Source of the DNA: Alphaproteobacteria bacterium
Lineage (GTDB): Bacteria; Pseudomonadota; Alphaproteobacteria; Bin95
Length of the DNA: 64,000 nucleotides
NCBI GenBank assembly: GCA_041687435.1
Contig: JAWLBX010000015.1
Span: 5,860-69,859 of the forward strand
Direction of reading: 5' to 3'
Shown here in pieces: positions 26,916 to 52,596 of the stretch (positions are counted from its first letter, which is position 1; every line of letters begins with the position of its first letter). The notes below the pieces were generated by a model, which did not search any database, had not been told where the DNA came from, and saw only the letters and a program-made list of their open reading frames with translations. Made by a program: the position numbers and the translations under genes.

Positions 26916-27906
26916 GGCATGGCGATCCTTGCGGAAAGGAAAACGGATGCCCGCACTATAGCAAGCTTCCAACCGGGGGAAACCGGTTCAACCCGCCCAG
27001 CGCTCCGCATCGTTTTTCTCACCCGCAACCGGATTGAGCGGCACGCCTCGCAGTCATCCATCTCAATAAAACACTATGAAATTTTCAGTAATTATAATCA
27101 TTTTCAATATATTCGCAGAGGCTACACTGCCTATCGGCCGAACACCTCAGAATGTATGCATAAGGGAATTTTCTCACCATACATTAATCCCTCACGATCC
27201 GGCCCTTCCGTCACGTCAACTTCCCAGCATAACTGGCATCGGGATAGGCTGGCGACCCAGCGGAGCATAATTTGGATATGTGCAGGAGAGAAAATACGCA
27301 ATATCGAACGCGGAAAAATATGACATCTATTATTTTCCCACCTTCCATTAAATTATCGAAACCAGTGCCTAAATATTGATTGCACGCATAAATTGCTGCA
27401 CCGGTATTGAATTATTCAATCACGCTTAATAAGACTGAAAACCTGAAAAATCTGGATAATATCATGGAATGTTTTATCACAAACATATCGACATAATGAA
27501 TTACTACGACATAGTATCAGGATTTTTTCAGCGCCATTTCCGCATTATCACCTCCATATACTTAACAAGTAAATCCGCCTTTCCCAAAACAATATGCAAT
27601 ATTCAGCGATACATTTATACATATGTATGAATTTGCACCGTAAATTCTCCATGATCTTTTGGATTATAACCCGGATTGATATCAGTCGCGACTTTACATT
27701 CTTTGTGATTTGTCCACATTTATTTCTGCATACGATGGACAATAGGACACCCTGAGGGTTACCCGAAGATGGTTCTTGGTTTGTATGGTAACAAGCTGCT
27801 TCTATTACAGACCGTTTGGAACGACGCCCGCCAGGGTTGTAATGCAGTCCATCTATGGATGTACGATAAATATTCCAAGTTCTCAACCGAGTGAAAGGAC
27901 AAATCT

Positions 27907-28689
27907 ATGCTTGAGCGCACCCCACAGGCTTTTATCAACGCCTGCTTCTCTTTGATGTGGAACTCCGGTTATTCAGCTACTATCGATACTGATTTGCGTG
28001 GCTGGGTGGATTTTCTAACCAACGCGTATCCGGATTCGCCCGTCAATGCAGCCTTCAACCCCGAATTCCATCGCCTGGAACCCGACAATTCGTTCTGGCT
28101 ATCCATTCGCCGGCGCAGCGATGGCAAGGTGATCGCTTGTATTTGCGACCGGTTGATCGAGTCAGACGATTTCCTGGAAGACCAGCGGCTCATGAAAATC
28201 TGGTATGGCGATCCGGCGACAAGCGGGGCGGCCCCCATGCAGATCGCGCAGCCGCGCTCCGCCTATCCTGATGTGCGCGGTAAGATCGGCCATCACGGCG
28301 GTCTCTGGGTCGACCGTAGCGAGCGACATAATGGGTTGGCATGGCTGCTGTGCCGCATCATCCGCGCCATGTCTCTGCAGCGCTGGCCGGATGTCGACTG
28401 GCACTGCGGCACCTCACTCGAGGGCGTGGCGGTACGGGATCTGCCAACAAATACCTACGGCTATACCCGTGTCGACCTCTTGCTCGACGGTTGGTTCCAA
28501 CCCAGTCAGCAGCACCATAAAGTGTTCATGACCTCGATCAGCGCCAATGAAATGAGCCTGCAAATTGCAGAGGATCTGTCACTGATCGAAATGAACACCG
28601 ACAAGCAAATGCGTGACGTTGTTTTTGCCGCTAGAGAGCGGAAGAGCAACACGCCGGTACTCCCGGCTGTGCAAGCCCTTGCCGGTTAA
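27907..28689 (+). CDS. hypothetical protein
   Basis: 260-aa ORF immediately downstream of an ~880-bp AT-rich non-coding stretch. Lower GC than its surroundings and no recognisable domain. Confidence 0.4.
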   Translation: MLERTPQAFINACFSLMWNSGYSATIDTDLRGWVDFLTNAYPDSPVNAAFNPEFHRLEPDNSFWLSIRRRSDGKVIACICDRLIESDDFLEDQRLMKIWYGDPATSGAAPMQIAQPRSAYPDVRGKIGHHGGLWVDRSERHNGLAWLLCRIIRAMSLQRWPDVDWHCGTSLEGVAVRDLPTNTYGYTRVDLLLDGWFQPSQQHHKVFMTSISANEMSLQIAEDLSLIEMNTDKQMRDVVFAARERKSNTPVLPAVQALAG

Positions 28690-29082
28690 TTGGGCACTCA
28701 CTCCTTGGAATAAAGGAAACTTATTCGCCTTCGCTATGACGAGATCACGCTCCAAGGCCCGCTGAAGGGCTTTGGAGCTGATGTCGGAAACGCGTATGCC
28801 GGAATAGCCACCCATGCCCCGCAGCGCGAACACGTCATAGCTAAAATTGCCGGGGTTTTCATCGTGCACATCGATGACATGGAACCAGCCCAGAACGCCC
28901 AGACGGGTCAATTCCATCAGCCCAACATCATCGATATCCGGCAAGATCCCGTGACGCCGGGGCAAGGAAAACCAGAAACGGACAAGCCGCGCCAACGGCG
29001 CGTCCTTGCCTTCATCCAGTTCGGTCAATGCGCACACACGCCGTTCTACGACATCGCCGCTTCCGGCTTCGCGTTCGATCAT
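28579..29082 (-). CDS. hypothetical protein (possible PAS-like sensory fold)
   Basis: 167-aa ORF whose 3' end overlaps the preceding convergent ORF by ~110 nt, so one of the two calls may be wrong. Weak resemblance to PAS-like folds only. Confidence 0.35.
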   Translation of the reverse strand: MIEREAGSGDVVERRVCALTELDEGKDAPLARLVRFWFSLPRRHGILPDIDDVGLMELTRLGVLGWFHVIDVHDENPGNFSYDVFALRGMGGYSGIRVSDISSKALQRALERDLVIAKANKFPLFQGVSAQLTGKGLHSREYRRVALPLSSGKNNVTHLLVGVHFDQ

Positions 29083-29109
29083 TTCGCACCTCGCGGCAAC
29101 AGCACGAAT

Positions 29110-29703
29110 TTATTGAAGATGGTCATTGCTGTACAACCAGTCGCCAGAGACCGATTCTCCATGCACAAGGACATATTCGAACGCCCCTGCATCGCGCAGA
29201 GGGAAAATCAGTTGGTCTATGCTATTACTCGCGTTCAGGTCCCGTCGGGAAAACCGTCTAGCAGCAGCGCGACGATAACGGACCGCATCCAGATATTCCA
29301 GGGCGAAAAGTTGCAATAACCGCGCATCATTTACGTGCCGTATGATCGCCGAGCCGAACTGCTGCCCTGCTTCCATCACAACCGCATCACCCGCCCAAAT
29401 CACCGGCCAATCGTCCGGGTCGCGCCCCACCACGCCGACGATATACGCCTGCTCGTCCAGCATGTTCAGCGATTGCATCACATCAGATACCATCCCGGTG
29501 AACTGGTAATATCCTGCAATTCCACATAAATCGACCCAGCGCAGCAGGGCTCGCTGCAACTCCTCCGTCGCCGAGAGAATAGGAATGTCGCTCGCTTCCA
29601 CGATCGCCGCAAGCTCCTTCTCAGGACCGATTCCGCCTTGAATGATCTTTCCCGAAGTCGACACGTTAACGTCCTTGTGTTTATAGACAAAGGATTTGAT
29701 CAT
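29110..29703 (-). CDS. hypothetical protein
   Basis: 197-aa ORF with no confident domain. Loosely similar in pattern to the preceding ORF. Confidence 0.4.
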   Translation of the reverse strand: MIKSFVYKHKDVNVSTSGKIIQGGIGPEKELAAIVEASDIPILSATEELQRALLRWVDLCGIAGYYQFTGMVSDVMQSLNMLDEQAYIVGVVGRDPDDWPVIWAGDAVVMEAGQQFGSAIIRHVNDARLLQLFALEYLDAVRYRRAAARRFSRRDLNASNSIDQLIFPLRDAGAFEYVLVHGESVSGDWLYSNDHLQ

Positions 29704-29754: not shown

Positions 29755-30561
29755 TCAACGATCACAGCTTCCCTTATGGCCATATTTCATGGCCGAAACC
29801 GATAAAATCATGCCGCTTTCCAACCAGAGCCGCAACAATGCCGCAGCGTGCGATCCGGCAGTATCCGCGCCGACACAGCCAGCCAGCGCCTCGCAAATCG
29901 CAGCGAACGGCTCGCCAGCCGCCAGTTGAGCCAGCGCCGCGTCCTCCGCTTCATCCAGCACCCGATAGCGGACGGTGTACCCGTCGCGCCAGACTAAAGT
30001 ATGATGCAGCGGCACCGGCTCCAGCGGGCCGGGCCCATCGCCTGCCGCCAACGCCTGATAGATTGCGGCGGCCGGTGTCGCAGCCGGCACCCGGCGCACG
30101 GCCAGATGAAGGGCGAAGCGCAGTTCCGGCCATTCCTGCGGGTGAAACGCCGCCATCGCTTCCACGCCGCACGCTGGCGCATCCGGCGCATCGAATGCGG
30201 CAGCAATGGCCCAATCCAGCGCGGCGACATCCGCCACCGCCGGTGTTCCGCTATGGTGGCTGGCCAGAAACCCCGCAAAGCCGTCGCCATACCATCGCGC
30301 ATTCCGCACTGCCGATGGCGCAGACGCGATATAGGCACGCGCAGCAGCATCGAAACCGTCATCGCCCAGCAAGGCCCAGGTCTTGTCGAAATTGGCCTGC
30401 AATACCTCCACCAGGCGGGCCGCATAGGCGTGGCGGTAGATGCCGAACAGGGTGGCCGCGCTTTCCCGCGGGCCGGCGTTGATGCCATCCGGTACGGTGT
30501 CGTTCCCGGTATGCAAAATTGCTGCCTGAAATTCGGCCTGAAGCGTAGCCAGATCGGTCAC
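29755..30561 (-). CDS. DUF2063 protein (MNIO partner subunit, BufC/MbnC/TglI-like) of RiPP operon 2
   Basis: 268 aa with a DUF2063-like N-terminal region ('[10 protein letters not shown]…[18 protein letters not shown]'). Its start overlaps the stop of the upstream DUF692 gene by 4 nt. Confidence 0.75.
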
Positions 30562-31412
30562 GACTTCCTGGCCTCTGCTTCCACCCGCGCAGCGATGGCA
30601 CGGGCATGGTCCAGTTCCGCGAGCAAATCGGCAAGCGGCGGAATGTTGTCGTCCCGTTCGATCATGGTCGAGACCCGGCCGAAGTGGTGGCAGGCAGCTT
30701 CATAAAGCGCCCAGACATCGTCGATCACCGGCGCATCGTGGGTGTCGATAATATGCGTGCCGTTGTTGCTGTGACCGGCGAGATGGAACTGGACCACCCG
30801 GTCACGCGGGACGCCTTCGATAAAGGTCTGGGCATCGAAATCGTGATTGAAGCCGCTGACATAGATATTGTTAACGTCGAACAGCAACCAACAATCGGCT
30901 GCCTCCGCCACCGCGCTCACGAACTCCCACTCGCTCATCATCGAATGGGCATAGGTGACGTAAGAGGACACGTTCTCAATGGCGATCCGCCGCCCCAGAT
31001 AATCCTGCACCTGGCGGATGCGCCCGGCCACATGGGCGACGGCTTCCTCCGTGTACGGCAGCGGCAGCAGGTCGTGCAGATTCAGGCCATCGACACCGGT
31101 CCAGCAGAGATGGTCGCTAATCCACTGGGGCTGGACCCGGTCGGCCAGCGCCTTCAGGTCGCGCAGATAATCCGGGTCCAGCCGGTCTGTGCCGCCGACC
31201 GACAGCGATACGCCATGCATGACAATGGGATAGTCGGCCCGCACCCGGTCGAGAATCGCCAACGGCTGACCGCCGGGGATCATGTAATTCTCGGAGATGA
31301 TCTCGAACCAATCGACCGGCGGCTTTTGCTCCAACACGTCAGCATAGTGCTGGGTACGCAGCCCCAGGCCAAACCCCAGATAGGGCGGGCGCTCCGCTAT
31401 GGAATCGGTCAT
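30558..31412 (-). CDS. DUF692 multinuclear non-heme iron oxidase (MNIO; MbnB/TglH/BufB-like) of RiPP operon 2
   Basis: 284 aa from the internal ATG ([19 protein letters not shown]...). DUF692 TIM-barrel motifs: 'WFEIISENY', 'HGVSLSVGG', 'WISDHLCW', 'LPLPYTEE', 'IENVSSY', 'FDVNNIYVS', 'FHLAGH'. Confidence 0.85.
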
Positions 31413-31514
31413 CGGCGGCGCTTCCTCATCCGGCAGGTCCAGAATCACCAACGGCCGAGCACACGTAGGCGCCCGGCCGAAGCGGCACAAGTGCCGGAGA
31501 TGACAGGGGGCGGA

Positions 31515-31775
31515 TCAGCCGACCTTGCCACCCATCTTCGTGCACTCTTCCGCGGTCTTGGTGTTGATCCAGCCCTGACCCTTGCAGGCATTCTGGCCCT
31601 TGCAGGAGCTGGTGGCGGTCTGACAGGCGCTGTGGCCCTTGCAGGAGTTGGCCCCCATGCACTTCACGCCATCGGCGGCGAACACGGCGGTCGGCGCCAC
31701 CATCGCGCCGGTGGAAAACATTGCGGCAGCAGCAGCGGCGAGCACGACGCCAGAGGTCTTTTTCATCACGGACAT
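31515..31775 (-). CDS. RiPP precursor peptide, 6-Cys bufferin-2-like, with Sec signal peptide
   Basis: 86 aa: MSVMKKTSGVVLAAAAAAMFSTGAMVAPTAVFA | ADGVKCMGANSCKGHSACQTATSSCKGQNACKGQGWINTKTAEECTKMGGKVG. AGGAG RBS 7 nt upstream of the ATG. It lies directly upstream of a DUF692/DUF2063 pair. Confidence 0.7.
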   Translation of the reverse strand: MSVMKKTSGVVLAAAAAAMFSTGAMVAPTAVFAADGVKCMGANSCKGHSACQTATSSCKGQNACKGQGWINTKTAEECTKMGGKVG

Positions 31776-31946
31776 GCAATATCTCCTAGAGGTTGGTCGC
31801 GCCGGACAATCCGGCGCGGTTTCGAACACTCCCGCACAAAGCCCTTGGCCGGGCCAATGTGCTGGTCGCATTCTGCGCTTTTGGCCCGGCAGCGCCACCA
31901 AACAGACGCACACAGACATTCACTGTTGTGTGAGACTGCATCGGTG

Positions 31947-32456
31947 TCACCGCCCTGCCAGGGCCCGGCCGAGCCAATGCTCGACCGAGATGATGCCGGG
32001 CCCCCGCGCCATGATCAACAGCAACGCGGATGCCCAGAGCAGATGCACATCCCATGCACCCGGCAACACAAATATCTGGATAACAAGCGTCATCCCGAAC
32101 AGGCCGAGCGCGGCCAGGCGGGTGAACACGCCGATGAACAGAAACAGCGGCAGCCAGCTTTCCATATAGGTCGCCATCCATCCTGCAAATCCGGGCGACA
32201 GCAGCGGCACGCCATATTCCTCGAACAGATATGGCAGGCTGGGGCTGAGTTCCAGGCTGAACGTCAGGGCGCCCAACAGATTCCAATCCACGGCTTTGGT
32301 CTGGGCCGAAACCAGGAATACCATGCCTATACCGACCCGCGCCGCAAACAGGATCAGGCTCATCGGGATCATTTCCAGGACGGCAATCCCGGCATTCACG
32401 GCTTCCATGGCGCTGTTGCTGGCGGGCCGCGGGTTGTAGCCTACCCTGTCATTCAT
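31947..32456 (-). CDS. DoxX family membrane protein (BufD-like) of RiPP operon 1
   Basis: 169-aa 4-TM DoxX-like protein. Its start overlaps the stop of the upstream DUF2063 gene (ATGA). Confidence 0.7.
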   Translation of the reverse strand: MNDRVGYNPRPASNSAMEAVNAGIAVLEMIPMSLILFAARVGIGMVFLVSAQTKAVDWNLLGALTFSLELSPSLPYLFEEYGVPLLSPGFAGWMATYMESWLPLFLFIGVFTRLAALGLFGMTLVIQIFVLPGAWDVHLLWASALLLIMARGPGIISVEHWLGRALAGR

Positions 32457-33274
32457 CGCGTGGTTTCCTTATTTTTCAATTCCTGTGGAGCCTCCAGCGC
32501 AGCAAAAGTGCCCCGCTGCAAGTTGGTCGACAAAGCATCTGCAAGGTCAAAAGCCGGATCGGCGGCGGTGGCTGCAGCGGCCGCCCCGGCCATGTCCTGG
32601 CCCGCAGCAAAGGCAGCGAGCCAATGCCATTCCCCGGCCGGCACATGCCACATGCGAACATCGTATCCCTGCCGCAGCAGCAGGATCGCAGCGCCGCCCG
32701 CAGCCACCAGGTCGATCCGCTCGAGCGCACCGCTCTCCGGCGCCCGCGTGGCGTGCCAGAGCGCATCCACCGGCCAGTCGCTCGCAACGAGGCCGGCATC
32801 GGCGCGGGGGCGCAGCACCAGATCGGCCAGCGCATCGGCCGGCACTGCCCCCAGTGCGCCAGCCGTCAGAGCCGACTCATCGGCAGCATGAAAACTTCGG
32901 TGCATGGCCCATTCCAGCCGCGCAAGGTCGGGCAGATAAGGCAGACTGGCGGCGGACGGAAACGCGGCGAGGAAGTCGGCAAAACCGTCGCCATAGGCAT
33001 AGAGCACCGGATCGCATGGCGGCCCTTCCGCGATGAAGCCGTGCGCGGCAGCGCGGAAAAATTGGATGCCCACCATGGCCTCAACGGCGCTGTAAATCCC
33101 GGCGAGCGCGTCGGTCAAGGTGATCCGGATGTGATTGTGATGCACTTGCAGACGGCTGGCCGGGGCGATGCCATCTCCGAGGATATGGCCGACCGCCCCG
33201 CCCCCATCCGCAGGCGGCACCGGTGCGAACAGTTGCGCCCGCATGGCGTCCTGAAGCTCAAGCAGCGTCGGCAT
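32453..33274 (-). CDS. DUF2063 protein (MNIO partner subunit) of RiPP operon 1
   Basis: 273 aa with a DUF2063-like N-terminus ('LQDAMRAQLF…'). It overlaps the upstream DUF692 gene by 17 nt. Confidence 0.75.
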   Translation of the reverse strand: MPTLLELQDAMRAQLFAPVPPADGGGAVGHILGDGIAPASRLQVHHNHIRITLTDALAGIYSAVEAMVGIQFFRAAAHGFIAEGPPCDPVLYAYGDGFADFLAAFPSAASLPYLPDLARLEWAMHRSFHAADESALTAGALGAVPADALADLVLRPRADAGLVASDWPVDALWHATRAPESGALERIDLVAAGGAAILLLRQGYDVRMWHVPAGEWHWLAAFAAGQDMAGAAAAATAADPAFDLADALSTNLQRGTFAALEAPQELKNKETTR

Positions 33275-34145
33275 GGCGCAAAGCCTGGTCTAGATGGCAC
33301 TGGGCCGCGGCAGCCTCTGCCAGCAGCACCTCCAGCGGTGGCATGGCGGTATCCCACTCGATCAGGGTTGGCATCGGCCCCAACAGGGCGAGCGCACGCT
33401 CATATAAGGACCAAACGGCCGGCGCCACGCGGCTGCCGTGGTCGTCGATGCGGACGATCCGCTCTCCCACCCGATTCTCGGCATGGCCGGCCAGATGGAT
33501 TTCCGCCACCGGTGCGCTACTCATGGTTTCCAGATAGACCGCTGCATCCCAGCCATGATTCTCGCAACTGACGTAAACATTGTTGACGTCCAGCAGAATG
33601 CCGCAGCCGGTCTGCTCCGCCACAGCCCGCATGAAATCGGGTTCGGCGATGGTCGAATGTTTGAATTGCAGATAGGTGGACGCGTTTTCTACCAAAATCC
33701 GCCGCCCAAAGGCCTCCTGCGCCTGGTCGATATTGCGGCAGACAACCGCCACGCTCTCCTCTGTATAGGGCAGCGGCAGCAGGTCATTGAAATAGGTGCC
33801 GCGGTGCATGCTCCAGGAGAGATGCTCCGACACCAGCCCCGGCTCGATGCGCCGGGCGAACGTCACCAGGCGGGCGAGGTGGGCAGGGTCCAGCCCGTCG
33901 GCCGAGCCGAGCGACAGGCCAACGCCATGCATGGACACCGGGTAATGTGCCCGCGCAGCCTCCAGGTAGGCGAGCGGCGCACCACCGCCCAGATAGTTTT
34001 CCGGATGGATTTCCAGCCAGCCGACGGCAGGCAAGGTTTGCGTCACCGCCTCAAAATGGGCGGCGCGAAGGCCGATCCCCGCCGCGACCGGAATGGTGGC
34101 CGCGTCGGGGAGTGGGCCAGACGGATATTGAGGCATGGCCTGCAT
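33258..34145 (-). CDS. DUF692 multinuclear non-heme iron oxidase (MNIO) of RiPP operon 1
   Basis: The same DUF692 motifs as paralog 2 are present ('WLEIHPENY', 'HGVGLSLGS', 'VSEHLSW', 'LPLPYTEE', 'VENASTY', 'LDVNNVYVS', 'IHLAGH'). Start at an internal ATG (MQAMPQYPSG… or the MPQYPSG ATG 9 nt downstream). Confidence 0.85.
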   Translation of the reverse strand: MQAMPQYPSGPLPDAATIPVAAGIGLRAAHFEAVTQTLPAVGWLEIHPENYLGGGAPLAYLEAARAHYPVSMHGVGLSLGSADGLDPAHLARLVTFARRIEPGLVSEHLSWSMHRGTYFNDLLPLPYTEESVAVVCRNIDQAQEAFGRRILVENASTYLQFKHSTIAEPDFMRAVAEQTGCGILLDVNNVYVSCENHGWDAAVYLETMSSAPVAEIHLAGHAENRVGERIVRIDDHGSRVAPAVWSLYERALALLGPMPTLIEWDTAMPPLEVLLAEAAAAQCHLDQALRHADAA

Positions 34146-34179
34146 TGGACCGAACCTTAGACTTCCGCCCCGCGAACCA

Positions 34180-34434
34180 TCAGCCGGCGGTCTTCGAACC
34201 GCCGACCAACCGGTCGCACAGGCCGGCCGGAACCAAAACCCAGGCGTCTTTCTGGCCATCCACCTTGGATGTACCGGCACAGGAACTGTTTGCCGTGTTG
34301 CAGTCGTTGGCGCCAGCCTTCACCACACCATAGCATTTTTCCATCTTTTGATCGGCAGCCGCGGCCGGGCTGGCGGATACCGTCGCGCCGACGGCAGCGG
34401 CTACGGCGGTGGCGAGCAGGGCAGTCTTGTTCAT
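34180..34434 (-). CDS. RiPP precursor peptide, DUF2282-type (bufferin-1-like), with Sec signal peptide
   Basis: 84 aa: MNKTALLATAVAAAVGATVSASPAAA | ADQKMEKCYGVVKAGANDCNTANSSCAGTSKVDGQKDAWVLVPAGLCDRLVGGSKTAG. Four Cys, in the arrangement typical of DUF2282. It is the first gene of the minus-strand operon. Confidence 0.75.
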   Translation of the reverse strand: MNKTALLATAVAAAVGATVSASPAAAADQKMEKCYGVVKAGANDCNTANSSCAGTSKVDGQKDAWVLVPAGLCDRLVGGSKTAG

Positions 34435-35100
34435 CTGTCAGATCCTTTCGGTTTCGCCTTCCGGCGACAGGCTTGTCCATCGCCTGCTGTCCATACAAGT
34501 TGCATTTCCGACCGATACGCCAGTCACTACCCCGTGATCTCACAGCCATGTTATGTAAGGTTTCCAAACAGTTCACGGCATATCACAGGGCAGCGCAACT
34601 GGACTCACAATTGTGTTATTCGGCAGAATGCCATCATCGCCATGGAATCTGAACGCACCCGATCCTGCCCGGTTGCCAGATCGGACCGCGCGCCGCGCGC
34701 GGCCCTGACCGAATGCTATTACATGACACCATCGAAATTAAGAGCCGGCACAATTGTGGCAACAACTTGGCATGGCGCAAATGGCGAGCACCTGCGTAGC
34801 GCGCGCCCTTATAAATTCGCAGCATCCGGCACTACGATATTCACATGACAGTACGGCGGTATCCAGCCGTCATCGCCGGCTGCAGCGACGTCAATGTCGG
34901 CAAACTCCCTGGCCAGTGCGCCTTTTTGGTAAGAGCGAAACACTTAACGGGCTTTTCATTTGCAGTAATTTGGAGTAGACAAGAGTTATTCAATTCGCGT
35001 GCCTACCGCCGAGGGGTGGGAATCAGGCGGAGATCGAATTGTTTGGTGGGCCAGACCCGCCTGACGCGGAACCCATAGTGCTAGGAGGATGGGCGACCCC

Positions 35101-41705: not shown

Positions 41706-42317
41706 CTACACCGAATAGTCAATCATCCTGACCTCCCCTTCCGCCAAATCCAGCACCGCACACGACAACTGCCGGCCGTTGCGTTGGTCGCGGGCGTCGC
41801 CGGCGGAGCCGGGGTTGACCACCAGCACATCGCCGACGCGCTCCGCCACCTGCTGGTGGGTGTGGCCGTACAGCACGATATCGGCATCCGCCTCGCCAAA
41901 GCGCTGCAAATCCTTGGAGCCGGGCAGGATATAGGCGCCCTGCGGCTCCCACGGGGTGGAGTGCACCATCAGGATGCGCTGGCCATGGCGTTCCAACTCC
42001 AGGCGATAGGGTTGCGCCTCCAGCCAGGCGACCAGTTCCTGGTCCACCCAGCTTGCCGCGCGCGCCCTGGCGCCCTGGGGGCCGAGAAAGCCCCATTCGT
42101 GATTGCCGAGGATGGTCGGGATGCCATTGTCGCGCAGCCAGCCGACGACCTCGTTCGAGAAGCGGTAGTCGTAAATCGTGTCACCGAGGCAGAGCAATTC
42201 GTCCACCGCGCCCATCAGTTCGACCGCCTTCAGCAACCCGGCCATGTTGCCGTGAATGTCGGAAACAATGCCGATTCTCACCCGGCCGTCTCCCGGGCGG
42301 CGATATCGCGGCGGCAA
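41706..42317 (-). CDS. metallophosphoesterase (YfcE-like calcineurin-fold phosphodiesterase)
   Basis: Metallophosphatase motifs 'GIVSDIHGN', 'LGDTIYD', 'GNHE', 'GHTH'. An in-frame GTG (VRIGIVSD) at 42281 would overlap the purD stop as GTGA and may be the real start. Confidence 0.75.
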   Translation of the reverse strand: MPPRYRRPGDGRVRIGIVSDIHGNMAGLLKAVELMGAVDELLCLGDTIYDYRFSNEVVGWLRDNGIPTILGNHEWGFLGPQGARARAASWVDQELVAWLEAQPYRLELERHGQRILMVHSTPWEPQGAYILPGSKDLQRFGEADADIVLYGHTHQQVAERVGDVLVVNPGSAGDARDQRNGRQLSCAVLDLAEGEVRMIDYSV

Positions 42318-43552
42318 AACCCTTCCGGCCAGTCGATCCGGTCCACGGCCTCATAGGCGCGAACTGCGGCTTCCTTGATAGTGTCGCCAAGGCCGGTAAT
42401 GCCCAACACCCGGCCGCCATTTGCCAGCACCCCGTCACCATCGGCCACAGTGCCCGCGTGAAATGGGATCACATCCAGCAGGCCTGCCAGACTGTCCAGC
42501 CCCCTGATCTCCGTCCCCTTGGCATAGGAGCCGGGATAGCCGTTGGCGGCCATGACAACGCATACCGCTGCCTCGTCGTACCAACGCAAATCGAACTGAT
42601 CCAGCACGCCGTCGCGGGCGGCAAACATGGCTGGAATCAGGTCCGATTGCAGGCGCGGCAGCAACACCTGCGCTTCCGGGTCGCCCAGGCGGCAATTGAA
42701 TTCGATCACCTTGGGCCCGTCTGCTGTCAGCATCAGGCCGGCATACAGCACGCCTTTGTAGGGCGCGCCTTCCACGGCCATGCCCTGCACCACCGGGTCG
42801 ATGATTTCGCGCATGACGCGCTCGCTCATCGCATCGTCCACCGCGGGCGCGGGCGAATAGGCGCCCATGCCGCCGGTATTGGGGCCGGTGTCGCCATCGC
42901 CGACGCGCTTGTGATCGCGGGCAGTGCCGAAGGGCAGCGCGGTCTTGCCATCCACCAGGGCGAAAAAGCTGGCTTCCTCGCCCTCCATGAACTCCTCTAC
43001 AACGATTTCCTGTCCGGCCGTGCCGAATTCGCCCTTGATCATGGCAAGGTCAATGGCGGCCAGCGCCTCGGCCCGTGTTTCCGGCAGCAGAACGCCTTTG
43101 CCGCCCGCCAGCCCATCCGCTTTTACCACGACCCGGCCCGGTTGCTGCGCCACGTAAGCCTTGGCCATGACCGGATCGCGGAAACGGCGATACCTGGCCG
43201 TCGGCACGCCGTATTTTGCGCACAGGTCTTTCATGAAGCCCTTGGACCCTTCAATCTGCGCCGCGGCGGCGCTGGGCCCAAATGCCTTGATGCCGGCCGC
43301 CTCCAGCCGGTCCACCAGACCCGCGCAGAGCGGCGCTTCCGGTCCGACTACGACCAGATCGACAGCATGCTCTTTCGCAAACGCCAGAATGCCGTCCAGG
43401 TCATCCGCCGCCAGGTCGGGCACACACGTTGCCTCTCGCGCAATGCCGGCATTGCCCGGGGCGCACCAGATCGCGTCGCACAGCGGCGATGCGGCAATGG
43501 CCCAACACAGGGCGTGCTCGCGGCCGCCGCTGCCGATAACGAGAAATTTCAC
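42278..43552 (-). CDS. purD: phosphoribosylamine--glycine ligase
   Basis: 424 aa with PurD ATP-grasp motifs throughout ('MKFLVIGSGGREHAL', 'GPNTGGMGAYSPAP', 'VLYAGLMLT..GPKVIEFNCRLGDPE'). Confidence 0.95.
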   Translation of the reverse strand: MKFLVIGSGGREHALCWAIAASPLCDAIWCAPGNAGIAREATCVPDLAADDLDGILAFAKEHAVDLVVVGPEAPLCAGLVDRLEAAGIKAFGPSAAAAQIEGSKGFMKDLCAKYGVPTARYRRFRDPVMAKAYVAQQPGRVVVKADGLAGGKGVLLPETRAEALAAIDLAMIKGEFGTAGQEIVVEEFMEGEEASFFALVDGKTALPFGTARDHKRVGDGDTGPNTGGMGAYSPAPAVDDAMSERVMREIIDPVVQGMAVEGAPYKGVLYAGLMLTADGPKVIEFNCRLGDPEAQVLLPRLQSDLIPAMFAARDGVLDQFDLRWYDEAAVCVVMAANGYPGSYAKGTEIRGLDSLAGLLDVIPFHAGTVADGDGVLANGGRVLGITGLGDTIKEAAVRAYEAVDRIDWPEGFCRRDIAARETAG

Positions 43553-43612
43553 GCCGAAACGCTCCGCTTAACATCTGTCACAATCGACGCCGATCTTGTA
43601 GCATCCGGCGCG

Positions 43613-45157
43613 ATGAGTACCAACCATGCACCACCGCACGCCGAACCGGGCCTTGACCTTGCGCCGCCGGACCCCGCGGCCACCAACCAGCCCGAATTCT
43701 CCGTCAGCGAACTGGCCCGCGCCATTCGCGGCTTGTTGGAGGGGGAATTCGGCCGCGTGCGCGTGCGGGGCGAGATCACCGGCTTCAAGCGCGCCGGCTC
43801 CGGACATCTGTATTTCCGGCTGAAGGATCAGGACGCAGTGCTGGATGCGGTCTGCTGGCGCGGCGCCGCCGGCCGGCTCAATGTGGCGCCACAGGATGGG
43901 CTGGAGGTCATCGCCACCGGCAAGATCACCGGCTACCCCGGCCGCTCCACCTATCAGATCGTGATAGAGCAGATGGAGATGGCCGGCGAAGGGGCCCTGC
44001 TCAAGCTGCTGGAGGACCGGCGCAAGGCGCTGGCGGCCGAAGGCCTGTTCGCGGCCGAGCGCAAACGCCCCCTGCCCTTTCTTCCGGCCGTGATCGGCGT
44101 TGTTACCTCGCCCACCGGCGCGGTGATTCGGGATATCCTGCACAGGCTGCGCGACCGTTTTCCCCGCCGCGTGCTGGTGTGGCCCGTGGCAGTCCAGGGG
44201 GACGCCGCGGCACCACAGGTCGCCGCCGCAATCCGCGGCTTCAATGCGTTAAAGCCCGGTGATCCGGCCCTGCCACGCCCGGACGTGCTGATCGTGGCGC
44301 GCGGCGGCGGCAGCCTGGAGGATCTCTGGGCCTTCAACGAGGAAATCGTCGTCCGCGCCGCTGCCGAATCGGAAATCCCCCTGATTTCGGCGGTTGGCCA
44401 TGAGACCGACACCACTTTGATCGACCATGCGGCCGACCGGCGCGCCCCAACGCCGACCGCCGCCGCCGAACTGGCCGTGCCGGTGGTCAGCGAATTGCTG
44501 ATGCGCATCGCCGACCTGGATCGCCGCCTGCTTGGTGGCGCGGTGCGCGGGCTGGAAGAGCGGCACTTGCGCCTGCAAGGCGCCGCCCGCGGCCTGCCGG
44601 CACCGGCCGACTTGGTGGAGCAGGCCGCCCAGCGCGTCGATGACCAGGCCGAGCGGCTGGCCCTCACCCTGCGCGGCTATCTCGTCAACGCGGCACAGAA
44701 TGTGCGGGCCAGCGCCGCCCGCCTGCGCCACCCGCGGGAAATTCTGGCGCTGCACGGCCAGTCACTCACGGCGCAAAGCCGGGCGCTGGACCGGGCGGCG
44801 GACCAGGCCTGGCGGGGGGCAGACCATGCCCTCGCCCGCGTCGATGCCGCCCGCCGTCTGCCTCTGGCGGCCGCCCGCGCTATTGACGACGCCGAACGGC
44901 GGCTGGAGCATACCGGCGCGCTCCTGCAATCCTATTCCTACGAGCGGGTGCTGGACCGGGGTTTCGTGCTGGTGCGCGGCCCGGATGGGCCGGTCACCGA
45001 CGCCGCCGATGCCACGCCAGGGCTGGCCGTCACCTTGCAATTCCGGGACAATCAGACCCGTGATGCCATCATTCAGGGCGAGGCCGAGCCCAAAACACCC
45101 GCCCGCAAGAAACACGCGGCCAAATCCCGCGATGGCCGGCAAGGCAGCCTGCTGTAG
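43613..45157 (+). CDS. xseA: exodeoxyribonuclease VII large subunit
   Basis: 514 aa from the internal ATG (MSTNHAPP…). N-terminal OB-fold region 'SVSELARAIRGLLE…VRVRGEITGFKRAGSGHLYFRLKD', the catalytic core 'VIGVVTSPTGAVIRD…GGGSLEDLWAFNEE…SAVGHETDTTL', and a long C-terminal coiled coil. The 5' 1.5 kb of the ORF-finder frame is antisense to purD and spurious. Confidence 0.9.
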   Translation: MSTNHAPPHAEPGLDLAPPDPAATNQPEFSVSELARAIRGLLEGEFGRVRVRGEITGFKRAGSGHLYFRLKDQDAVLDAVCWRGAAGRLNVAPQDGLEVIATGKITGYPGRSTYQIVIEQMEMAGEGALLKLLEDRRKALAAEGLFAAERKRPLPFLPAVIGVVTSPTGAVIRDILHRLRDRFPRRVLVWPVAVQGDAAAPQVAAAIRGFNALKPGDPALPRPDVLIVARGGGSLEDLWAFNEEIVVRAAAESEIPLISAVGHETDTTLIDHAADRRAPTPTAAAELAVPVVSELLMRIADLDRRLLGGAVRGLEERHLRLQGAARGLPAPADLVEQAAQRVDDQAERLALTLRGYLVNAAQNVRASAARLRHPREILALHGQSLTAQSRALDRAADQAWRGADHALARVDAARRLPLAAARAIDDAERRLEHTGALLQSYSYERVLDRGFVLVRGPDGPVTDAADATPGLAVTLQFRDNQTRDAIIQGEAEPKTPARKKHAAKSRDGRQGSLL

Positions 45158-48746: not shown

Positions 48747-48941
48747 TGTTTTCCCTTGGCGCTGAGGCCAGGCCAGAGCCGGAACAACAGGCTACCGGAA
48801 AAGCCAACGGCAAACAATCAGTTGGCGGATAACTGCCTTTGAGCGTATATGAAAGGCAGGATAACAGTGCCAGCCATTGGCGGAAACGTTTGCGATCAAA
48901 CACCAATGGAACCTCCGCCCGGCGGGAGCAAGGAGCAGCGT

Positions 48942-50177
48942 ATGCAGGACGCGCTGGCAAATGATGGAGGCAGCAAAAGGCTGCTGATATACAGTCATGA
49001 CAGTTTTGGACTTGGCCATTTGCGGCGGTGCCGGGAAATCGCCAACGCACTGGTGGATGCTTACGACAATCTATCGGTTCTGATTCTGTCCGGATCGCCG
49101 ATCATCGGCAGCTTTGACTTCCGCCCGCGTGTCGATTTTGTGCGTATTCCCGGCATGATCAAGCTGTCCAATGGCGAATACACCTCGCACGCGCTGGATA
49201 TCGCGCCGGAAAAAACTTTGGAGCTGCGCGCCGCGGTGATCAGCGAGACTGCACGGATCTTCGATCCCGACCTGTTCCTGGTCGACAAGGAGCCGCTGGG
49301 CCTGCGGGGTGAGGTGCGGGCAACCCTGGAATTGCTACGCCTGCGCGGCACTCGAATCGTGCTGGGACTGCGCGATGTGATGGACGATCCGGACGCGCTG
49401 CAACCGGAATGGAAGCGCAAGCGCGCCCAGCCGGCCCTGCGCGATCTGTATGACGACATTTGGGTCTACGGCCTGCCGCAGATCTGCGACCCGCTGGAGG
49501 GGATCGACCTGCCGGATTCCGTGCGGCGCAAGATGGTCTACACCGGCTATTTGCGCCGGCGGGTTAGCACCTCTCCCGATGCTGCGGCAGGGCTGGTCGG
49601 TACCGAGCCCTATATTCTGGTCACCCCAGGCGGCGGCGGCGATGGCGATGCCCTGGTCGATTGGGTAATCCGCGCTTACGAGACCGACCCCGCCCAGCCT
49701 TACCGCGCGCTGATCGTGTTCGGCCCATTCATGCAGGGCGAGCAGCAACAGGCGTTCCGCCAGCGGATCGAGGGTCTGCCGAATGTCGAAGCGATCACCT
49801 TTTACAATCAGATGGAAACACTGATTGCCGGGGCTACCGGCGTCATTGCCATGGGCGGTTACAATACGTTCTGCGAAATCCTGTCCTTTGACAAACCGGC
49901 CATCATCGTCCCGCGCACCCGGCCACGGATGGAGCAATCGATCCGCGCCGCCAGGGCTCAGGAACTGGGGCTTGTGCGGATGCTCGACCCGGATGACGGC
50001 CGCCCGGCCCGTGTCATGGCCACGGCCATCCGGCAGTTGCCGCAGCAGGGGCGCCCGTCGGACGTCGTGGTGCCGGGGCTGCTCGACGGCCTCGACAATG
50101 TCAAACGCCTCGTAGGCCGGGCCTTGGAGCAGGGCCGGATCCAGCCCTTGCGCTTTGCCGAGGCGGGCGGTGACTGA
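48942..50177 (+). CDS. glycosyltransferase, GT-B fold (GT1/GT28-like)
   Basis: 411 aa from the internal ATG (AGGAG RBS). N-terminal 'LIYSHDSFGLGHLRR' resembles the GxGH nucleotide-sugar motif of MurG/GT1 enzymes. Paralogous to 53171..54331. Confidence 0.65.
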   Translation: MQDALANDGGSKRLLIYSHDSFGLGHLRRCREIANALVDAYDNLSVLILSGSPIIGSFDFRPRVDFVRIPGMIKLSNGEYTSHALDIAPEKTLELRAAVISETARIFDPDLFLVDKEPLGLRGEVRATLELLRLRGTRIVLGLRDVMDDPDALQPEWKRKRAQPALRDLYDDIWVYGLPQICDPLEGIDLPDSVRRKMVYTGYLRRRVSTSPDAAAGLVGTEPYILVTPGGGGDGDALVDWVIRAYETDPAQPYRALIVFGPFMQGEQQQAFRQRIEGLPNVEAITFYNQMETLIAGATGVIAMGGYNTFCEILSFDKPAIIVPRTRPRMEQSIRAARAQELGLVRMLDPDDGRPARVMATAIRQLPQQGRPSDVVVPGLLDGLDNVKRLVGRALEQGRIQPLRFAEAGGD

Positions 50178-51450
50178 ACCGGCAACGGGCAGCAAACCCG
50201 GCGGCGTCGCCGTCGTCCTCAAAGGCTATCCGCGCCTTTCCGAAACCTTCATCGCGCAGGAGATCCTGGCACTGGAGCAGCGTGGACTGCGCCAGCACAT
50301 CATCTCGCTGCGCCATCCGACGGATCAGAAACATCACCCGATGCACGCGGCGATCCGCGCGCCGGTGCTCTATCTGCCCGAATACCTCTACAAGGAACCG
50401 CTGCGGGTGATGCACGCTTGGTGGCAGGTGCGGCGCCGGCCCGCCTTTCGGGCCGTGCGCAGGCAGTGGCTACACGATCTCTGGCGCGACCGCACGCCGA
50501 ATCGCGGCCGCCGCTTCGGCCAAGCGCTGGTGCTGGCGGCGGAACTGCCTGCGGACATTGGCCATTTGCATGCCCATTTCCTGCACACACCCGCCTCGGT
50601 CACCCGCTACGCCGCGGCGCTGTGCGGCCTGCCGTGGAGCGTCTCCGCCCACGCCAAGGACATCTGGACCTCGCCCGAATGGGAAAAACGCGAGAAGCTG
50701 GCGGATTGCGCCTGGGCCGTTACCTGCACCGCTTTCGGCGCGGCGCACCTGCAAGCCCTGGCGTCGGAGCCTGAGCGGGTAGAACTGCTGTATCATGGCC
50801 TCGACCTCGGCCGGTTTCCGCCGCCGCTGGCCGAACGGGGCGCGCGCGACGGCGGCGATGCCGGCGCGCCGGTCCGCATCCTGTCGGTCGGGCGCGCGGT
50901 GCCGAAAAAGGGGTATGATGACCTGCTGAACGCGCTGGCCCAGCTGCCGCCCGGCCTGGCCTGGCATTTCACCCATATCGGCGGCGGCAAGCTGGCCGCC
51001 CGCCTGAAACAACAGGCAGAGCGGCTTGGCATTGCGGACCGCATCACCTGGCAGGGCTCGCAGGCGCAGGAGGCTGTGGTCGCCGCCTACCGCGAGGCTG
51101 ACCTGTTCGTGCTGGCCAGCAAAGTCGCCAGCGATGGCGACCGCGACGGCCTGCCAAACGTGCTGATGGAGGCGCAAAGCCAAGGCCTCGCCTGCCTCGC
51201 CACCACGGCGGCCGGCATTCCCGAACTGATTCGCGACGATGAGACCGGGCGCCTCACGCCGCCGGGCGACCCCGCTGCCTTGGCCGACGCCCTGGCAGAC
51301 CTGATCCGCGCACCGCAGGAACGGGCTCGCCTTGGCACTGCAGGAGCGCAGGCGCTGAGCCGCCGTTTCTCGTTCGGGAACGGCATTGACCGGCTGGCCC
51401 GGCGCTTCGGTCTGACGGCTGGCGCACCGGCCGTCCGTGCCGCGGAATAG
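50155..51450 (+). CDS. glycosyltransferase family 4 (GT4, RfaB-like)
   Basis: C-terminal GT4 motifs ('ILSVGRAVPKKGYDDLL', 'EADLFVLAS…DGLPNVLMEAQSQGLACLAT', the E-x7-E region). Confidence 0.8.
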   Translation: MPRRAVTEPATGSKPGGVAVVLKGYPRLSETFIAQEILALEQRGLRQHIISLRHPTDQKHHPMHAAIRAPVLYLPEYLYKEPLRVMHAWWQVRRRPAFRAVRRQWLHDLWRDRTPNRGRRFGQALVLAAELPADIGHLHAHFLHTPASVTRYAAALCGLPWSVSAHAKDIWTSPEWEKREKLADCAWAVTCTAFGAAHLQALASEPERVELLYHGLDLGRFPPPLAERGARDGGDAGAPVRILSVGRAVPKKGYDDLLNALAQLPPGLAWHFTHIGGGKLAARLKQQAERLGIADRITWQGSQAQEAVVAAYREADLFVLASKVASDGDRDGLPNVLMEAQSQGLACLATTAAGIPELIRDDETGRLTPPGDPAALADALADLIRAPQERARLGTAGAQALSRRFSFGNGIDRLARRFGLTAGAPAVRAAE

Positions 51451-51465
51451 AGGCAGCAGTCCCGC

Positions 51466-52596
51466 ATGCGGATCGCCTTTTATGCTCCGCTGAAAGCGCC
51501 GGATCATCCAACCCCTTCCGGCGACCGCCGCATCGCGCGCCTGTTGCTCGACGCATTGCAGCGCGGCGGACACGAGGTGCATCTGGCAGCGCGCTTGCGC
51601 TCCCGCGACCCGGCGGGCGACCGACTGCGGCAGGCGCGCCTCGCCGATCTGGGGCAGCGGCTCGCGGCCCGCCTGCTGCGGCGCTATGCGGAGGCCAACA
51701 GGCCGCCGGATGTATGGATTACCTATCACCTTTACTACAAGGCTCCCGATTGGATCGGCCCGCATGTCGCCGCCGCCTTGGCCATCCCCTACATCGCCAT
51801 AGAGGCCAGCCACGCACCGAAACGTGCTGGCAGCCCCTGGCATCTGGGCCACCGGGCCGTCGAACATGCGGTGCGCCAGGCTGCCCGTGTTGTTTGCCTG
51901 AATCCGAATGACTACGCCTGCCTGGAGCCGCTCGCCGCGGGGCGGATTGCCATGCTGGCCCCGTTCCTCGACCCCACGCCCTATGCGCCACCTGCCGCCG
52001 ACACCCGCACGGCTCTGGCCGCGCGCTATGGCCTGCCCATGGCAGAGCCCTGGCTGCTGGCTGTCGGCATGATGCGGACCGGCGACAAACTCGCCTCCTA
52101 CCGGCAACTGGCGGAGGCGTTGCAGGGCTTGCAAGGGCGCCCCTGGCGCCTGATCGTCGTCGGCGACGGCCCGGCGGCGGCGGAGGTTCGAGCGGCCTTC
52201 GCCCCCTTCGCCGGCCGCATCGCCTGGCTTGGCACCCTGGACGAGGCCGCCCTCGCCTGCGCCTATCAAGCCGCCGACATGCTGGTCTGGCCAGCGGTGC
52301 GCGAGGCATTCGGCATGGCGCTGTTGGAGGCCCAGGCCGCTGGCCTGCCTGTCGTTGCCGGCAACACGGATGGCGTGCCCGCCGTGGTTGCGGATGGTGA
52401 GACCGGACTGCTGCCTGCGCCGGGCGACACACGCGCCTTTGCCGCTGCCGTCAACACCCTGCTGGACGATCCCGCCCGGCGTGAGGCGATGGGGCAGGCT
52501 GCGCGGGCGCGTGTTTTGCGGCATCATTCGCTCGACGCCGCAGCAAAACAGCTCGACCGTATTCTGTTGGAGGCCACATGCCGCTCCTCAGCCTGA
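51466..52596 (+). CDS. glycosyltransferase family 4 (GT4)
   Basis: GT4 C-terminal domain ('LLAVGMMRTGDKLASY', 'AADMLVWPAVREAFGMALLEAQAAGLPVVAG'). Confidence 0.8.
   Translation: MRIAFYAPLKAPDHPTPSGDRRIARLLLDALQRGGHEVHLAARLRSRDPAGDRLRQARLADLGQRLAARLLRRYAEANRPPDVWITYHLYYKAPDWIGPHVAAALAIPYIAIEASHAPKRAGSPWHLGHRAVEHAVRQAARVVCLNPNDYACLEPLAAGRIAMLAPFLDPTPYAPPAADTRTALAARYGLPMAEPWLLAVGMMRTGDKLASYRQLAEALQGLQGRPWRLIVVGDGPAAAEVRAAFAPFAGRIAWLGTLDEAALACAYQAADMLVWPAVREAFGMALLEAQAAGLPVVAGNTDGVPAVVADGETGLLPAPGDTRAFAAAVNTLLDDPARREAMGQAARARVLRHHSLDAAAKQLDRILLEATCRSSA

Follow-up and report, generated by a model that had tools for sequence, protein, structure and literature searches.

The reading frame at positions 31515-31775 (minus strand, stop codon included) of the 64-kb stretch of DNA analysed here, which we call the window, is very probably bufA2, encoding the precursor of a type-2 bufferin that is expressed from its own transcription unit and carries the same cysteine chemistry as in Caulobacter. 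We put this reading as a whole at a probability of roughly 0.85. The translation, MSVMKKTSGVVLAAAAAAMFSTGAMVAPTAVFAADGVKCMGANSCKGHSACQTATSSCKGQNACKGQGWINTKTAEECTKMGGKVG, is an 86-aa peptide with six cysteines, at residues 39, 45, 51, 58, 64 and 78. It scores 87.1 bits on the curated equivalog model for BufA2 (NF050166; cutoff 60, E = 6.8e-25) and aligns to positions 2-78 of the model's 79. This bears out an earlier sequence-only reading, which had proposed a BufA2-type (6/12-Cys) precursor associated with an MNIO. Judged by its sequence, the product is an ordinary new member of a known RiPP family, BufA2 (bufferin 2). We rejected the idea of a new class or a novel peptide because the curated model already names the family; the NCBI annotation pipeline would likewise already name it BufA2, and the peptide by itself adds nothing conceptually.

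The position of the gene, its six cysteines, an AGGAG Shine-Dalgarno sequence 7 nt 5′ of the ATG (31783-31787, minus strand) and the 171-nt gap to the upstream DoxX gene had all been given exactly by the sequence-only reading. The Shine-Dalgarno sequence is invariant between the window and two related loci, L081 and L091. The ATG of the short frame is the true start: homologues begin at the position of MSVMKK, and the upstream extension contains 16-nt and 2-nt indels and, in relatives, in-frame stops. The longer 134-aa frame is an artefact, as had been suspected. Between bufA2 and its L081 relative (85% identical), differences are distributed 11/8/33 across the three codon positions, and the codon changes in the 86-aa frame comprise 30 synonymous and 13 non-synonymous substitutions. 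This third-position bias and the conservation of the frame, with 166 homologues found, rule out a non-coding region, an outcome that the earlier reading had allowed for. Relatives are encoded in 574 of 600 candidate stretches from GTDB species genomes.

Conservation was counted over 112 aligned homologues, 107 of which have six cysteines. Residues C39, G41, N43, C45, G47, C51, G60, N62, C64, K65 and G68 are invariant in all 112, and the cysteine spacing is 6,6,7,6,13 or 6,6,7,6,14 in every one of the 107, with the latter found here. These invariant columns and the spacing delimit a Cys-rich core from C39 to C78 (31542-31661, minus strand), in which two C-x-G-x-N-x-C-K-G modules (C39-G47 and C58-G66) lie around C51. 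The core had been described as three near-repeats, which holds for the short (S/A)CKG unit (C45, C58 and C64, the second, fourth and fifth cysteines) and fails for C-x-G-x-N-x-C-K-G, present as two full units only; the fourth (S/A)C candidate reads ACQT rather than CKG. C51 departs from the family norm in being followed by Gln, as in 4 homologues, where most have Lys and 22 have Ala.

Residues 1-33 (31677-31775, minus strand) form a predicted Sec signal peptide by hydropathy profile, with MSVMKK as the n-region, an Ala-rich h-region (9-residue Kyte-Doolittle mean of up to 2.6) and predicted cleavage between A33 and A34 within V-F-A/A-D. An A-x-A motif 4-6 residues before the first cysteine is kept in homologues, and the peptide contains no lipobox. 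Bufferins as a family are exported through Sec and induced by copper (PMC11626156).

Directly downstream lie bufB2 (30558-31412, minus strand), encoding a 284-aa MNIO maturase (NF050167, 386 bits, cutoff 310; PF05114) with its ATG at 31412 and GAGGAAG 8 nt upstream, and bufC2 (29755-30561, minus strand), encoding the DUF2063 partner protein (PF09836, 74.8 bits), whose GTG start overlaps the bufB2 stop (GTGA). About 60 related loci share this bufA2-bufB2-bufC2 order. BufB2 falls below the cutoffs of the HvfB model (289.7 bits, cutoff 360) and the MbnB model (67 bits, cutoff 325). Caulobacter vibrioides BufA2 (CCNA_03001; BUF_6/12Cys; NF050166) has the same six cysteines, Cys-Lys-Gly motifs and N-terminal Sec-type signal, and it too is followed directly by bufB2 and bufC2, with no DoxX of its own.

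Upstream, the DoxX gene bufD1 (31947-32456, minus strand; PF07681, 42.5 bits) is the last gene of a buf1 operon whose precursor, BufA1 (DUF2282, PF10048), is encoded at 34180-34434 and scores 82.8 bits. The array thus reads buf1ABCD-buf2ABC, head-to-tail on one strand, with each precursor beside its own MNIO; in Caulobacter, by contrast, buf2 is a separate locus with a sigma-F promoter. The two precursors had been called distinct classes, and PF10048 indeed gives no match to the BufA2 peptide at E ≤ 0.01, which has six cysteines rather than the four-Cys pattern. They are homologous (BLASTP E = 0.004; the BufA2 model gives BufA1 31 bits) and alike in fold topology, maturation by an MNIO and a DUF2063 protein, Sec export and a role in copper handling. 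BufA1 has four cysteines, two of them modified, whereas BufA2 has two extra CKG cysteines flanking the central pair; in the alignment, Cys II, III and IV of BufA1 correspond to C51, C58 and C78. Around the residue that is proposed to touch the substrate Lys, BufB2 reads ERDD (D255) and BufB1 of the same window EWDT. Asp occupies this position in 48 of 61 BufB2-type enzymes.

The gap between the DoxX stop and the bufA2 ATG (31776-31946) had been suggested as the possible seat of an internal promoter, and we found promoter- and operator-like elements within it. The first is a palindrome, TCACACAACAGTGA (TCAC-N6-GTGA), at 31920-31933 on the minus strand; a second copy, TCACGGGGTAGTGA, lies at 34524-34537 (minus strand), 103 nt upstream of the bufA1 ATG. 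These are the only two matches to TCAC-N6-GTGA in the 64 kb. Of the alphaproteobacterial loci, 18 of 28 have the palindrome before bufA2, versus 1 of 51 others; sites number 23 in 20.5 kb of bufA2-upstream DNA and 14 in 1,078 kb elsewhere (about 86-fold). Methylocella silvestris, Reyranella and an Azospirillaceae isolate are among the alphaproteobacteria that have it. Its arms are invariant across the three lineages represented by the window, L081 and L091, while the flanks diverge. Other tandem loci have comparable arrangements: L088 (Alphaproteobacteria) has TGACGGGCGCGTGA upstream of bufA1 and a promoter-type element in the DoxX-bufA2 gap as well, and L011 and L012 (Betaproteobacteria) have GTAAGG-N15-CGAT before both precursors, including in this gap.

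Downstream of the palindrome by 44 nt lies a candidate -10 hexamer, CAGAAT (31870-31875, minus strand), which would place the transcription start near 31863. A -10-like xAxxxT hexamer is found at exactly this distance in 11 of 28 sites, compared with 0-2 at most other offsets and 3-6 at a few. Offset +14 also yields 11 such hexamers, only 1 of them TATAAT-like, versus 9 of the 11 at 44 nt that match TATAAT in at least four of six positions; the relatives read CAAAAT, CAATAT, TACACT and TAGTAT. The candidate -35 in the gap is poor. Closer to the gene, a hairpin in the presumptive 5′-UTR, CGCGCCGGA-UUG-UCCGGCGCG (31798-31818, minus strand), has a minimum free energy of -19.2 kcal/mol and a z-score of -2.3; an 8-pair consensus stem with two compensatory pairs in three lineages is weak evidence for it. 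No Rfam family matched over the locus at E ≤ 1. Together, these elements would make the 171-nt gap a regulatory region with a candidate operator and promoter, and buf2 its own transcription unit within the tandem array. Because the same operator precedes bufA1, one dimeric regulator would co-control the buf1 and buf2 operons.

In Caulobacter, the sigma-F bufferin promoter is GTAACC-N16-CGAA upstream of the precursor gene (PMC3511200), and here the palindrome replaces that motif. With up to two mismatches, GTAACC-N16-CGAA has no match in 31776-31946, and its sole match near bufA1 overlaps the bufA1 start codon. Two candidate ECF elements, an AAC-N16-CGAT close to bufA1 and a CGAA conserved within the gap, were dropped because their -35 parts are mismatched or unconserved. 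A possible sigma-54 site in the gap, TGGCGC-N6-GC, has on reading the sequence the wrong spacing, GG-N9-GC. Pfam scans of 30 flanking ORFs returned no response regulator, ECF sigma factor, NrsF or copper-resistance gene, and the 64-kb window holds no sigF, nrsF, CopRS, cenR or cenK gene.

The operator would most likely be bound by an OmpR-family response regulator. The CenR site that was mutated experimentally at S. meliloti srlA has exactly this TCAC-N6-GTGA core, which is also among the ChIP-derived CenR sites of R. sphaeroides, and CenR-type sites (TCA/TGA-N8-TGA, AGTCAC-N6-GTGACT type) are present at both 31920-31933 and 34524-34537. In the srlA promoter and the R. sphaeroides CenKR regulon the core site, given as AGTCAC-N6-GTGACT and T(G/C)AC-N6-GTGA, is identical to that of the gap; it precedes the core promoter, as here, and exported envelope and redox proteins abound in the regulon. 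CenR is confined to Alphaproteobacteria, matching the distribution of the palindrome. CenR promoters differ from the gap in having AG before TCAC, where C/T is found here, and in a site centred at -42 rather than near -63 from the inferred transcription start, and no bufferin gene has been reported in CenR regulons. In the literature we found no link between CenR and DUF692, DUF2282 or bufferins, and the Brucella CenR paper mentions none. We tentatively propose, with more doubt than confidence, that in many Alphaproteobacteria the bufferin operons are controlled through TCAC-N6-GTGA by CenR, an essential envelope two-component regulator, or a close OmpR-family paralogue, and not by sigma-F/NrsF, with each operon of a tandem array having its own site.

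It is a serious possibility, at somewhat less than even odds, that TCAC-N6-GTGA is bound instead by a CopR/CusR-type or other regulator, or that it is a functionless sequence inherited within the lineage. The specified core is just 8 bp, and the E. coli CusR box, TGACAA-NN-TTGTCA, has the same geometry. CopS-like kinases accompany 8.4% of MNIO-PME1 clusters. Bufferins are induced by copper (PMC11626156). On the other side stand the exact identity of the core to the site mutated at S. meliloti srlA and to ChIP-derived sites of R. sphaeroides and, for a copper regulator in particular, the absence of CopRS genes from the window. That the sequence has no function is improbable, given that the arms and their distance to the -10 are constant even where the spacer and flanks have diverged.

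The same elements bear on whether the gap contains a promoter at all. If it did not, bufA2B2C2 would be expressed only by read-through from the bufA1 promoter, on a seven-gene mRNA, and the gap elements would be RNA processing or stability signals. Consistent with this, the seven genes lie on one strand and the hairpin sits just upstream of the ribosome-binding site; moreover, a generic sigma-70 promoter and terminator scan of 29.5-35.2 kb found nothing in the gap, after DoxX or after bufA2, with counts no higher than shuffle expectation, so that neither a canonical sigma-70 or sigma-F promoter nor a terminator-like site after DoxX is in evidence. However, the palindrome in the gap is the same as that upstream of bufA1, and it occupies the same position before bufA2BC operons that stand alone and must be served by promoters of their own. 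The -10-like hexamer lies at a fixed distance from it, and an RNA signal would hardly take the form of a 4+4-bp palindrome. We therefore consider expression by read-through alone improbable; read-through from buf1 may coexist with an internal promoter.

For the chemistry, the closest guide is C. vibrioides Buf2, in which only the four central cysteines carry a -4.03 Da change (5-thiooxazole) and Cys I and Cys VI are unmodified and probably disulfide-bonded (PMC11626156). The mass shift of -18 Da there corresponds to four changes of -4 Da and one S-S bond, becoming -16 Da once reduced, with Cys I and VI only alkylated (PMC11626156). By analogy, the thiooxazole sites of the peptide in the window would be C45, C51, C58 and C64, with a disulfide between C39 and C78. 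We are less confident of modification at C51, where Gln follows in place of the Lys of most homologues, than at the three CKG cysteines. A profile search of the PDB found no relative with a solved structure, and an AF2 model from the 112-sequence alignment (low confidence, pLDDT 58.8), used for secondary-structure order only, assigns C39 to a strand and C78 to a helix. As this model is poor, the proposed disulfide draws on homology and secondary-structure topology alone. The published core numbering (Cys I = 24, Cys VI = 50; PMC11626156) does not match the 38/39-residue span of the BufA2 family here.

The earlier suggestion that repeat spacing may dictate which cysteines are modified finds no support; what has been proposed as the substrate determinant is instead a local Cys-Lys motif read by an Asp of the MNIO, Asp251 in BufB2 (PMC13097082). 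As the spacing is constant throughout the family, it may nevertheless play some part. In the window, the Lys residues of the CKG motifs would be read by Asp255 (ERDD) of BufB2. Following the Caulobacter system, BufB2 and BufC2 would oxidise C45, C51, C58 and C64 to 5-thiooxazoles in the cytoplasm, the Sec pathway would export the peptide with a signal peptidase cut after A33, C39 and C78 would form a disulfide, and the 53-aa product would chelate excess copper in the periplasm. This predicted core, ADGVK...GKVG, has a calculated monoisotopic mass of 5321.37 Da.

It is highly improbable that modification yields oxazolone-thioamides, the groups of methanobactin and of the first proposal for oxazolin. 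Such groups are isomers of 5-thiooxazoles with the same mass shifts, and they were the first assignment for related MNIO products (PMC11252979), but oxazolin was later reassigned to 5-thiooxazole, a structure supported for bufferins too, with alkylation-assisted HMBC and 305-nm absorbance behind it (PMC13097082). Oxazolin (HvfA) belongs with fontiphorin (FonA) and gonophorin to the Lys-Cys captophorins, which resemble bufferin in having an MNIO with DUF2063/PME1, 5-thiooxazoles and copper binding, and differ in having EGKCG 5-mer repeats, Lys before Cys and Phe as the MNIO determinant, where BufB2 here has Asp. The peptide has no EGKCG repeat, and Lys precedes C39 only, the other five cysteines following S, A or E. 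Methanobactin (MbnA/MbnB/MbnC) is similar in that an MNIO turns Cys into a copper-binding heterocycle; unlike bufferin, it has a leader peptide, dedicated export, an oxazolone-thioamide and the MbnC partner, and it serves as a secreted chalkophore instead of a buffer in the periplasm. Scarcely credible is the earlier proposal that all six cysteines are MNIO substrates in three pairs set by repeat spacing: the six are spaced near-regularly and family-invariantly, and methanobactin-type products use paired heterocycle/thioamide ligands (PMC11626156), but it conflicts with the four modified inner cysteines that the reduced Buf2 mass and the alkylation of Cys I and VI indicate (PMC11626156), C39 and C78 lack a CKG context, and in the model they appear to lie in the strand and helix that a disulfide joins in BufA1.

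Between bufA2 and bufB2 lies a GC-rich 11-bp stem-loop (31452-31479, minus strand), a candidate leaky terminator or 3′ stabiliser. A 12-pair stem at this position is kept in 4 relatives, followed there by U-rich tails, and a hairpin with z < -2 is found there in 40 of 58 loci; a good U-run after the hairpin is absent in this window. The hairpin probably attenuates read-through into the enzyme genes, as a result of which precursor mRNA would outnumber enzyme mRNA. Its presence after the precursor gene across distant lineages suggests a general control of stoichiometry, with precursor in excess of enzymes.

The locus offers more than its peptide. The tandem array is a clean natural example of two bufferin systems side by side, and its two MNIOs, differing as ERDD and EWDT, form a ready pair for studying substrate selectivity. 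The bufferin literature leaves unexplained how Buf2 clusters that lack neighbouring sigma/anti-sigma genes are regulated, and the bufferin papers we consulted do not describe the arrangement of operator and promoter that is conserved, within a restricted lineage, before bufA2. Its resemblance to CenR sites yields a hypothesis that can be tested directly; if true, a copper-chelating RiPP would fall inside the CenKR cell-envelope stress regulon.

The six-cysteine ORF at 31515-31775 on the minus strand (86 aa; Cys at 39, 45, 51, 58, 64 and 78) is a genuine, conserved gene: database searching recovered 166 homologues (top identity 85%), and at least 574 relatives were confirmed among the 600 stretches listed when one genome was scanned for each GTDB species. 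Relative to the closest related locus, L081, nucleotide differences number 11/8/33 at codon positions 1/2/3; of the changed codons, 30 are synonymous and 13 non-synonymous. The MSVMKK start, with a Shine-Dalgarno AGGAG 7 nt 5′ of its ATG (31783-31787, minus strand), coincides with the N-termini of aligned homologues; the longer 134-aa frame is unconserved, relatives carrying 16-nt and 2-nt indels and in-frame stops 5′ of the ATG. The sequence-only reading had chosen this start, called the longer frame an artefact and placed a 171-nt gap before the ORF, and its observations hold as a whole: the DoxX ORF ends at 31947.

An NCBIfam equivalog model, NF050166 ('BufA2 family periplasmic bufferin-type metallophore', cutoff 60 bits), gives the peptide 87.1 bits. 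Directly 3′ lies a gene that matches NF050167, 'MNIO family bufferin maturase', at 386 bits (cutoff 310), and the next encodes DUF2063. A complete buf1 operon lies 5′ on the same strand: bufA1 (34180-34434; DUF2282, 82.8 bits), bufB1 (about 33258-34145; MNIO), bufC1 (32453-33274; DUF2063) and bufD1 (31947-32456; DoxX). The peptide is thus precursor 2 of a tandem buf1ABCD-buf2ABC array and, as had been guessed, of a class distinct from precursor 1, which is DUF2282/BufA1. The two are distantly homologous, with C51, C58 and C78 aligning with BufA1 Cys II, III and IV; compared with BufA1, BufA2 in effect gains one CKG Cys on either side of the central pair. On these profile matches, it is a new sequence in a RiPP family for which a curated model exists.

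According to PMC11626156, bufferin precursors have Sec signal peptides, BufB together with BufC is both necessary and sufficient for modification, and the product protects against copper. The BufA2 N-terminus is likewise a predicted signal peptide by hydropathy and alignment (KK n-region, Ala-rich core, VFA/AD), with no lipobox in this region. The mass shift of Buf2 (-18 Da, or -16 Da once reduced) is accounted for by four Cys each losing 4.03 Da as 5-thiooxazoles, together with a single disulfide joining Cys I to Cys VI, both unmodified (PMC11626156). By homology, C45, C51, C58 and C64 would be the modified set and C39-C78 the disulfide, contradicting the earlier proposal of three Cys pairs as substrates. 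We found no solved structure among relatives; a low-confidence AF2 model (pLDDT 58.8; strands 37-40 and 69-72, helix 75-80) has the same strand-to-helix disulfide topology as described for BufA1. In the PMC11626156 numbering, Cys I (Cys24) and Cys VI (Cys50) of the Buf2 core span 26 residues, versus 38 or 39 in all 107 six-Cys homologues among 112 aligned; the discrepancy reflects either a misprint in the numbering or a different Caulobacter peptide.

The peptide contains two full C-x-G-x-N-x-C-K-G modules (C39-G47, C58-G66); an (S/A)-C-K-G motif occurs three times, and Gln-Thr comes after the remaining inner Cys, C51. C39, G41, N43, C45, G47, C51, G60, N62, C64, K65 and G68 are invariant in the 112-sequence alignment, and Cys spacing is 6,6,7,6,13 or 6,6,7,6,14 in 107/107 six-Cys homologues. 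Repeat spacing had been suggested to dictate which Cys are modified. BufA2-like peptides, however, are classed as 'Cys-Lys' substrates, with an MNIO Asp (BufB2-Asp251) proposed to contact the substrate Lys (PMC13097082). The determinant position reads ERDD in the window's BufB2 and EWDT in its BufB1, and BufB2-type enzymes adjoining bufA2 in related loci have Asp in 48 and Ala in 13 cases. The published determinant is therefore local CKG context more than spacing. C51 lacks a following Lys (this position is K in 68 homologues, A in 22 and Q in 4), and its modification is the least certain among the four inner Cys.

Two minus-strand hairpins flank bufA2, and an Rfam search of the locus matched no family. 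A 9-bp hairpin (31798-31818), about 10 nt 5′ of the Shine-Dalgarno sequence, retains its stem in L081 and L091, two of the pairs being compensatory; its support is weak because only three sequences contribute. An 11-bp GC-rich hairpin (31452-31479) between bufA2 and bufB2 is shared with four close relatives, in which it is followed by U-rich tails, and 40 of 58 distant loci have a hairpin with z < -2 at this position, often with clear U-runs. This hairpin may be a leaky terminator or 3′ stabiliser, raising precursor mRNA relative to enzyme mRNA.

Elsewhere in the window, the region directly downstream of bufC2 (27000-29703) has lower GC, an AT-rich intergenic part (about 27000-27900) and ORFs without Pfam match at 27907-28689 (+), 28579-29082 (-) and 29110-29703 (-); the region may have been inserted from a foreign source. 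The exonuclease VII large subunit ORF (42053-45157, plus strand; 1034 aa) has Pfam domains only from residue 549, reflecting either an over-extended start in a GC-rich frame or an unusual N-terminal extension of ~540 aa. Three sizeable ORFs without Pfam match (685, 255 and 170 aa; 50470-52527 (-) and 54328-55604 (+)) are interleaved with GT28-family glycosyltransferase genes (48849-50177 and 52817-54331).

Across genomes, bufA2-bufB2-bufC2 alone is the usual order (~60 of 80 GTDB loci). The head-to-tail seven-gene tandem (window 29755-34434, minus strand) is also present in L081-L083, the nearest metagenomic relatives, in L088-L090, a lineage at 62% identity, and in two Betaproteobacteria (L011, L012); two alphaproteobacterial lineages besides the window's have the fusion. 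The tandem is thus a minor, recurrent variant. Separately, L021, L028, L051, L053 and L056 (Reyranella, Cocleimonas and others) place two or three tandem bufA2 paralogues before a single bufB2C2; two paralogues in L051 have lipoprotein-type signals (LLAGC).

Within the DoxX-bufA2 gap, we identified by pattern match a palindrome, TCAC-N6-GTGA (31920-31933, minus strand), that recurs 5′ of bufA2 across related loci. The only other copy in the window (TCACGGGGTAGTGA; 34524-34537, minus strand) lies 103 nt 5′ of bufA1; 0.45 copies are expected by chance, and 6/100 shuffles gave at least two. Over 82 loci, 23 sites fall in 20.5 kb of bufA2-upstream DNA versus 14 in 1,078 kb elsewhere, several of the latter before second or third bufA2 paralogues. 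Each Reyranella paralogue has its own site. The palindrome occurs at 18/28 alphaproteobacterial loci versus 1/51 others, and when the window, L081 and L091 are compared as a three-lineage footprint, its arms stay unchanged amid diverging flanks.

At 11/28 sites, the sequence exactly 44 nt past the palindrome is a -10-like hexamer, xAxxxT (CAGAAT here, 31870-31875, minus strand; CAAAAT, CAATAT, TACACT, TAGTAT and TAATAT in relatives). Other offsets mostly give 0-2 sites, with 3-6 at a few; offset +14 also gives 11, only one matching TATAAT at ≥4/6, versus 9/11 at offset 44. Because the spacers are unalignable between lineages, the constancy of this distance points to function and not to common descent. 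Other tandem loci also retain a promoter-type element in this gap: L088 has TCACAGAGATGTGA 5′ of bufA2 and TGACGGGCGCGTGA 5′ of bufA1, and L011 and L012 have GTAAGG-N15-CGAT 5′ of both precursors. From these comparisons we conclude that the gap probably holds an internal promoter/operator that derives from stand-alone bufA2BC operons, bearing out and sharpening the internal promoter first suggested for it, and we infer that one regulator may co-control buf1 and buf2.

The L011 element (about 5230-5270 and 7840-7880; same in L012), ATGTAAGGAA-N(about 14)-TCGATC, is an ECF-type promoter duplicated per operon; it resembles GTAACC-N16-CGAA, the sigma-F motif of Caulobacter (PMC3511200). That motif is absent from the window's gap, where a generic sigma-70 scan also found no match; an ECF-like AAC-N16-CGAT lies ~20 nt downstream of the 34524-34537 palindrome. 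Alphaproteobacterial promoters 5′ of bufA2 in L027, L049, L006, L048, L077, L008, L066 and L073 carry sigma-F-like GTAAC-N16/17-CG(A/T)A, in L027 and L049 with the palindrome immediately upstream. Two combinable regulatory modes therefore exist.

The window encodes no sigF, nrsF, response regulator or copper-resistance gene. A CopR/CusR-type copper regulator could bind the palindrome; such regulators use sites of similar geometry (the CusR box). A literature search on the motif led to the alphaproteobacterial CenK-CenR system. At the srlA promoter of Sinorhizobium meliloti, CenR binds AGTCAC-N6-GTGACT, and mutagenesis shows the TCA triplet to be essential (PMC9561847, PMC11328730). In R. sphaeroides, CenR sites obtained by ChIP, among them TCACCTCCTCGTGAG, TGACGCAGCTGTGAA and TGACGCGGGCGTGAA, lie just 5′ of -35 elements and belong to genes mostly encoding exported envelope/redox proteins (dsbC, surA, ccmF, msrA; PMC9275681). 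The bufA2 palindrome resembles these sites in geometry, core sequence and restriction to Alphaproteobacteria, a likeness in which only an 8-bp core is specified; the literature searched reports no link between CenR and bufferin genes. We tentatively propose CenR or a close paralogue as its regulator, at a probability of about 0.3. Of the findings here, only the operator and its possible link to CenR merit pursuit.
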